A stretch of 64,000 bases of DNA. Source: Escherichia coli. Its GTDB lineage: Bacteria; Pseudomonadota; Gammaproteobacteria; Enterobacterales; Enterobacteriaceae. The notes beneath the pieces were generated by a model, which was not told where the DNA came from, searched no databases, and was given only the letters and a program-made list of their open reading frames with translations. Below, piece by piece: positions 5,795 through 6,351 of this stretch; the stretch's first letter is position 1, and every line of letters starts with the position of its first letter. Where the stretch lies: NCBI RefSeq assembly GCF_003018115.1, contig NZ_CP027457.1; one strand, 5' to 3'. Both the position numbers and the translations under genes were made by a program.

Positions 5795-6351
5795 TAAAAC
5801 CGCATCAACCGTTCTACCAGTTGTTCTTTACGGGCAACGATCCAGTCGTGTTGCTCCAGATAAAAACCGTTCCAGAGTGCATACCATCGCATCGGCGGGG
5901 ATTTTTTCCGTGAATTCGACCTGCCCGTGTTTATCGAGGTGGATCAGTAATGCGTATCCATCATTTTGGGTTGGGGGGGTTTGTGCTGCTGGTGGCTGTT
6001 TTTGGCTGAAATAACAGTCTTCGAGTTTTTCGAACACTTCCCACGCCTGAACGGTTTCCAGCATTTTTGCGTGGCGTGCTGCTCCGCGTTCTGTCCATAG
6101 GGTGAGGGGCGGGCTTTGGGAGATATGGGGTTTTGTGACTTACTTAAAGTAAGTCGCAAATTTTTTAATTCTTCACCCGATGCTTTAAAAAAGTGCTTTC
6201 CTTCGACAAAACGCTCTTTGTTTCTGGTGAAGTTAACCTAGATATTCAGAATTTCGGTGCCATAAAGCTGCACCAAAAGTTCGGTGGTAATAACAGGAAT
6301 CTGGTTATGGGTGAACGGGGAGATGGTTTCAACAGAGATTTGAGTTGTCAT
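5795..6351 (-). pseudogene. ORF6N/antirepressor-like prophage gene, disrupted by one in-frame TAG and two frameshifts
   Basis: ATG at 6351 with gaggg RBS gives MTTQISVETISPFTHNQIPVITTELLVQLYGTEILNI, then TAG (6238-6240), then NFTRNKERFVEGKHFFKASGEELKNL in the same frame; LTLWTERGAARHAKMLETVQAWEVFEKLEDCYF continues in a second frame after the G4T4 run (6127-6134); WIVARKEQLVERLMRF in a third frame after the A5 run (5863-5867). Confidence 0.55.

Follow-up and report, generated by a model that had tools for sequence, protein, structure and literature searches.

The window analysed here, a 64-kb stretch of DNA, matches the E. coli 07-4299 chromosome at 100%, and its RefSeq/PGAP annotation was read from that record (NZ_CP027462.1). 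On the minus strand at 5794-6351, PGAP enters locus C6W75_RS26355 as an 'ORF6N domain-containing protein' and marks it pseudo, with the comment 'frameshifted; internal stop'. The pseudogene status of this locus is therefore already known from RefSeq. It is an ORF6N-domain, AnrP-like pseudogene whose ancestral product was 187 aa long, and it occupies the att-proximal end of a lambdoid prophage that is inserted in ompW. The 3' remnant of ompW (6809-6934, plus strand; PGAP 'OmpW family... missing N-terminus') marks the host/prophage junction about 460 nt from the pseudogene. The DNA between the two is non-coding, and yciE, yciF and yciG follow beyond the remnant in window order. The same ompW remnant adjoins every ompW-edge locus we examined. 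On the prophage side, both the ORF list and PGAP place a DUF4376 tail-fibre-assembly gene at 4715-5386 and a tail-fibre gene at 3459-4646, each on the plus strand. The tail-fibre gene contains long collagen-like Gly-X-Y repeats, which give rise to many spurious overlapping ORFs on both strands.

The pseudogene begins at ATG 6351, and the good ribosome-binding site of the original prediction is there, with GAGGG located 7 nt upstream. The first ORF is 37 codons long and ends at TAG 6238-6240. The peptide blocks VNFTRNKERFVEGKHFFKASGEELKNL, LWTERGAARHAKMLETVQAWEVFEKLEDCYF and WIVARKEQLVERLMRF, the last followed by the stop, were all found in the translations of the window. VNFTRNKERFVEGKHFFKASGEELKNL continues the frame of the first ORF past the TAG, LWTERGAARHAKMLETVQAWEVFEKLEDCYF is in another frame and WIVARKEQLVERLMRF forms the tail. 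The stop codon is TAA 5796-5794, and the gene with its stop codon thus spans 5794-6351 rather than the 5795-6351 given originally. Nine nucleotides past the stop there is a terminator-like hairpin (5762-5784, minus strand), which consists of AACCCCGG, a loop and CTGGGGTT (8 bp) and runs into the T-rich AATTTTATC; a hairpin past the stop had also been anticipated. Within the coding sequence, at 6137-6155, we observed a perfect 19-nt palindrome (GACTTACTT-T-AAGTAAGTC), one of only three in the window. Diverged alleles keep its symmetry through changes in both arms (GTTACTTTAAGTAAC in ECOR29, GTGACTTTAAGTCAC in C5), and it is absent from Gifsy-1 anrP. On the plus strand a T-run follows the palindrome, and the element scans as terminator-like.

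The lesions were positioned by alignment with the intact genes of RM13752 and ECOR29, and then with the intact ompW-edge alleles of RM9088 (WP_042970649.1) and ST2350. A 751-nt query (window 5700-6450) finds a match to 80% or more of its length in 74 E. coli genomes. We also compared 11 alleles column by column: that of the window and ten near-identical ones (98.7-99.9%) from the ompW edge of other strains, sequenced in different laboratories and countries. Lesion 1 is an amber codon at 6238-6240, where Gln38 has changed from CAG to TAG; it occurs in 7 of the 11 near-identical alleles. All close relatives have CAG (Gln) as codon 38, and AAA (Lys) is found only in more distant alleles; from these alignments we read the amber codon as a C-to-T transition. 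The position of the amber codon had been called correctly, but its proposed origin, AAG to TAG, does not hold. Lesion 2 is a 1-nt deletion, the loss of T from CGC[T]CCC after codon 81, with its junction at 6108/6109. It is present in 11 of 11 near-identical alleles and absent from the intact genes of RM9088, ST2350, RM13752 and ECOR29, and it puts the middle block out of frame. The first frameshift had been mapped to the G4T4 run at 6127-6134. That run is identical in intact orthologues, and frame 1 reads the correct SQNPISPKAR as far as the deletion at 6109/6108.

Lesion 3, the deletion of 5 nt (TTTAA/TTAAA) at codons ~162-163 with its junction at 5865/5866, is carried by 5 of the 11 alleles. 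The T5/A5 run near 5863-5867, from which a homopolymer slip had been deduced, is the product of this deletion and not a slipped homopolymer. Alleles that keep the 5 nt have AAA changed to TAA at the same place. Together the deletions of 1 and 5 nt remove 6 nt, which restores the ATG frame for the tail, and the gene is spread over two frames in all, with only the middle block out, rather than the three originally proposed. The two supposed homopolymer frameshifts were therefore wrong in mechanism in both cases and in place in one. None of the three lesions falls in a long homopolymer in the ancestral sequence. Intact orthologues of 186-188 aa read through all three sites, both at the ompW edge (RM9088, ST2350, PSJ-22) and downstream of Q (RM13752, ECOR29). 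This comparison confirms that there are three lesions, and it shows that intact homologues do not end where frame 1 stops.

The conceptually repaired protein belongs to a recognisable family. Residues 12-97 match Pfam ORF6N (PF10543) over positions 3-86 of 86 (E 1.7e-19, 70.3 bits), and residues 1-187 match PHROG 2379, 'anti-repressor', over the entire profile (1-187 of 187, E 1.3e-84). Together with the PGAP pseudogene call, these matches bear out the original description of a decayed ORF6N/antirepressor-like gene at a prophage edge. KilAC and Bro-N had been named beside ORF6N as models to search, and only ORF6N fits: the Pfam-A scan of the repaired protein gave no second family, and thus no KilAC, Bro-N or P22 Ant model. 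The NCBIfam scan placed it in no family, and a sequence search against solved structures gave nothing significant (best E 0.28). With Gifsy-1 STM2616/SL2578 (AnrP), the repaired protein shares 54% identity over 186 aa (E 3e-63), and both are 187 aa long.

The repaired protein is built from two modules. Over its N-terminal 116 aa it shares 63-73% identity with 'ant' genes of VT2-Sakai and many Stx1a/Stx2a phages, and this N-terminal domain is all that these Stx-phage Ant proteins have in common with it. The C-terminal part (approximately residues 117-187) is a separate module. In ETEC1748, the leader described below (isrK and C4) occupies the same ompW-edge slot and precedes an 'ash family' ORF and a Rha-family regulator (1188-2017 of the retrieved locus). 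Over its last 71 residues, this regulator shares 83% identity with the C-terminus of the ORF6N protein. Judged from the alignments, ETEC1748 is a case of N-terminal domain swapping on a common C-terminal module.

Upstream of the pseudogene we found a set of minus-strand leader elements at 6404-6625 and an upstream ORF, none of which the original prediction mentions. A promoter-like site at 6596-6625 (TTGACA-18-CATATT) corresponds to PisrK. Its -35 hexamer does not vary across Gifsy-1 and the E. coli cassettes; the -10 of intact cassettes is TATATT, and the window carries a derived T-to-C change at 6601. An IsrK-like sRNA with its own intrinsic terminator follows at 6513-6589 (Rfam RF01394, 60.4 bits; gathering threshold 50) and aligns with Gifsy-1 isrK. 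Overlapping it at 6550-6602 is a match to the a1/b1 element of C4 systems, which scores below its gathering threshold (RF03163, 38.6 against 46.7). At 6404-6487 there is a C4-type antisense-like RNA, equivalent to the STnc1160/orf45 region of Gifsy-1 (RF01695, 61.6 bits; gathering threshold 45). The ORF list and the leader alignment together define a 36-codon upstream ORF (6373-6483) within the C4-like element, the counterpart of Gifsy-1 orf45, with its stop 21 nt ahead of ATG 6351.

The minimum free energy (MFE) fold pairs the IsrK loop UUGGAAC (6564-6558) with GUUCCAA of the C4 element (6432-6426). A third matching copy, UUGGAAC, lies downstream, and there is likewise a third copy in each cassette compared. 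The specificity loop co-varies between cassettes, being GGAAC in the window, GAGAC in a paralogous cassette of the same prophage, and GGCGU in Gifsy-1 and RM9088. The z-score of the whole-leader fold is only -1.24 against shuffled sequences, so thermodynamic stability alone is not evidence. The same isrK and C4 leader precedes every homologous E. coli gene we examined, those at the ompW edge as well as those downstream of Q. An Rfam search of the DNA downstream of the pseudogene gave no isrJ counterpart (no match at E<=1).

The function of such a leader has been worked out in Salmonella Gifsy-1 (Hershko-Shalev et al. 2016, PMC4825925). There, PisrK gives rise to a short terminated IsrK and to a read-through mRNA that is translationally silent. 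[quoted passage not shown] AnrP increases transcription of the antQ operon and induces the prophage, and expression of toxic AntQ results (PMC4825925). The validated helix involves IsrK G28/G31 and orf45 C162/C159 (PMC4825925).

We conclude with high confidence that 5794-6351 is the dead protein cargo of an antirepressor cassette controlled by IsrK/C4-type RNA at the ompW end of the prophage. In the ancestral cassette, a sigma-70 promoter would have produced a short terminated IsrK-like sRNA, recognised here by homology and assigned a function from Gifsy-1. The ancestral read-through transcript would have carried the upstream ORF inside a C4-like structure and then the 187-aa ORF6N-domain protein. 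Today translation is expected to halt at codon 38, inside the ORF6N domain (12-97), and the output of the switch would be gone. Even with read-through of the amber codon, the 1-nt deletion after codon 81 and the 5-nt deletion near codon ~162 should scramble about 80 codons. Both the silence of the gene and any activity of the leader in 07-4299 are predictions made from the DNA. By analogy, a repaired member of the family would act as an antirepressor; for the 54%-identical Gifsy-1 AnrP this activity is known as induction and an increase in antQ, not as repressor binding.

The alleles of other strains allow the decay of the gene to be ordered. The 1-nt deletion is found in every sampled allele, which makes it the oldest lesion seen. 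In the sister alleles, the amber codon and the 5-nt deletion come in all four possible combinations, with RM7190 carrying the deletion without the amber codon; therefore, either the alleles recombined or one of these lesions arose twice. Sister alleles also carry alternative lesions, namely a GAG-to-TAG change at codon 46 (in RM9245 and RM10466), the AAA-to-TAA change and poly-C length changes. In our reconstruction, the 1-nt deletion would have inactivated the gene in a single event, and the other two lesions would have come later, in sub-lineages, on a gene that was already dead. This is the ordinary course of neutral pseudogene decay, and it forms part of the explanation in which we place high confidence.

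Substitutions in the coding remnant give at most a modest sign of relaxed constraint. At sites where five intact homologues do not vary, the repaired window allele shows 10 private amino-acid replacements, and close intact alleles show 1-3. Pairwise dN/dS values were 0.25-0.32 for repaired against intact genes and 0.16-0.27 among intact genes, with too few substitutions for a clear relaxation signal; the signal that dN/dS suggests is modest. Two other ompW-edge loci showed further changes. The allele of strain C5 is frameshifted independently. Downstream of its intact ompW-edge gene, ST2350 has another C4 match together with an incomplete, frameshifted ORF6N gene (3610-3954 of the retrieved locus), which by sequence is a tandem duplicate or the remnant of a second cassette.

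If the lesions were sequencing or assembly artefacts, the gene would be intact in the living strain. The poly-C tract at 5979-5985 gives this idea some footing: its length and composition vary from C6 to C11 among near-identical alleles, and this variation could reflect real slippage, homopolymer miscalls in other assemblies, or a combination of the two. However, no lesion lies in a long ancestral homopolymer, one of them is a substitution and another is a 5-nt deletion. In addition, the lesions are shared with assemblies from other laboratories and countries, at 11/11, 7/11 and 5/11 alleles. Because each recurs in independent assemblies of other strains, the lesions are inherited and not sequencing errors, as the original prediction of real decay from three independent lesions had proposed. 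We rejected the artefact reading, which these shared lesions contradict and which we consider almost certainly wrong. A product might instead be made by recoding, through read-through and programmed frameshifts, or from a separate fragment such as the 78-codon ORF at 5828-6064, which is ATG-initiated, encodes 78 aa and spans part of the C-terminal region. Recoding is unnecessary in intact orthologues, though, and the lesions are polymorphic among near-identical alleles, with sister alleles differing from one another. CGC-CCC-TCA offers no slippery heptamer, ATG 6064 is not preceded by a Shine-Dalgarno sequence, and the 37-aa N-terminal peptide ends within the ORF6N domain. On these points we rejected this reading as well, as scarcely credible. 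A third account accepts the loss and makes it adaptive: the host, or a prophage under domestication, would have been selected to inactivate this AnrP-type trigger of induction and Q-mediated growth arrest, and the whole cassette, with its promoter and RNAs, would be in the course of being shut down. Salmonella AnrP induces Gifsy-1 and toxic AntQ follows, the ompW-edge allele of C5 was frameshifted on its own, and all 11 dead alleles also share the -10 change and a mismatch in the IsrK terminator stem, all of which would fit such selection. After a common 1-nt deletion, however, more lesions are expected under neutrality, so that multiple hits are no proof of selection. Other strains also retain intact alleles at this site, and the presence of a second intact cassette in the same prophage argues against strong selection against the function. 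We therefore regard adaptive loss as possible but unlikely.

The remaining account concerns the leader. It holds that the protein is dead but that the IsrK-like and C4-like RNAs are still made, as orphan riboregulators acting in trans on other cassettes or host targets. The isrK and C4 elements do still score above the Rfam gathering thresholds, the complementarity of UUGGAAC, GUUCCAA and UUGGAAC is intact, and the MFE fold recovers the helix equivalent to b-I of Gifsy-1. Against this, conservation of the leader does not exceed that of the dead coding sequence: the 11 dead alleles vary at 6 sites in ~274 nt of leader and at ~9 in the 558 nt of the coding remnant. The leader also carries derived damage. 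In 11 of 11 dead alleles the -10 has changed from TATATT to CATATT and the IsrK terminator stem has an A.C mismatch; in the window leader, A.C mismatches affect two IsrK stems. In the window and in 2014C-3338, the second AUG of the upstream ORF has disappeared as well, as has the pair that closes a GAAA hairpin. The Rfam scores of the window leader are at or near the bottom of the compared set. In addition, the specificity loop of the intact paralogue differs (UUGAGAC/GUCUCAA). In Gifsy-1, single changes in the specificity loop abolish trans-activation (Table 1F, PMC4825925). Calculated duplex energies gave no discrimination, with -22.7 kcal/mol for the leader's own target and -24.2 for the foreign one in the paralogous leader. 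Because they did not discriminate, the orthogonality of the edge IsrK and the paralogue rests on the loop differences and the published single mutants. Overall, the orphan-riboregulator account appears quite improbable, and we see only a slim chance that IsrK (6589-6513) and C4 (6487-6404) are transcribed and act in trans after the loss of their cargo. If they do, the orphan RNAs might set up 'RNA immunity' or mediate cross-talk with phages, incoming or co-resident, that have a GGAAC loop, such as those with RM13752-type cassettes downstream of Q. The leader is probably no longer under selection.

The original prediction also held that loss of the gene may bear on inducibility. By analogy with Gifsy-1 this is plausible in kind, but it is weakened by a second, intact isrK, C4 and ORF6N cassette in the nin region of the same prophage, outside the window (NZ_CP027462.1, 2528196-2528986). 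The ORF6N protein of this cassette (record 2528196-2528747) is 183 aa long and 55% identical to the repaired protein. In other respects the prophage looks complete, with head, tail, lysis, Q (record 2524126-2524791) and replication genes present. Its repressor (WP_001003380.1; record 2532674-2533081) is a 135-aa protein with an HTH domain only and no S24 peptidase, 28% identical to Gifsy-1 GfoR, and from this domain content it probably belongs to the non-cleavable, antirepressor-dependent class. Repressors of the non-cleavable Gifsy type need antirepressors for induction, according to PMC3121763. Because the prophage has such a repressor and a second intact cassette, its inducibility cannot be deduced from the pseudogene alone. 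Any effect of losing the edge copy is uncertain and probably buffered by the intact paralogue. Elsewhere in the prophage, outside the window, five copies of the STnc100 sRNA family lie between tRNA genes and a nanS-like esterase gene (four adjacent ones at 31214-32193 and a fifth at 33953-34165 of the retrieved prophage sequence). Stx phages carry stx at this site, and no stx genes are annotated there.

The closest known system is isrK-orf45-anrP-isrJ of Gifsy-1 (PMC4825925). Promoter, IsrK, C4-like element with upstream ORF, and gene come in the same order and at the same spacing, the leaders align, and the validated Gifsy-1 helix has a co-varying counterpart in the window leader. In the Gifsy-1 record, isrK, C4 and STM2616 (AnrP) lie downstream of Q. 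In contrast, the window cassette sits between ompW and the tail-fibre-assembly gene, with no Q upstream and no isrJ downstream, and its protein gene is a pseudogene. The upstream ORF of the window has 36 codons and ends after a gap of 21 nt from the next start, whereas orf45 of Gifsy-1 has 45 codons and overlaps the anrP start (ATGA). The specificity loops also differ, GGAAC in the window and GGCGU in Gifsy-1. The antirepressors GfoA and GfhA (Lemire et al. 2011, PMC3121763) share a functional context with the locus, in that the window prophage has a repressor of the putatively non-cleavable class. As that paper describes them, however, GfoA and GfhA are small and controlled directly by LexA, and in this they differ from ORF6N proteins with an IsrK/C4 leader.

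The immI region of P1/P7 (c4-icd-ant) resembles the window in having a C4-family RNA (RF01695, clan CL00128) with flanking complementary elements ahead of a small ORF and an antirepressor-type gene. The logic is shared as well: an RNA controls translation of the upstream ORF, which gates the downstream ant. In the window, C4 scores above its gathering threshold and a1/b1, at 38.6, falls below 46.7. The P1 C4 RNA represses icd/ant, whereas the Gifsy-1 IsrK activates. The gene family and its RNA switch are already characterised in Salmonella Gifsy-1. To this, the ompW-edge locus adds that a broken prophage gene is the cargo of an IsrK/C4 cassette, that this cassette recurs as a mobile module in E. 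coli both at the ompW edge and downstream of Q, and that its lesion history can be ordered, with a common 1-nt deletion first and lineage-specific hits later.
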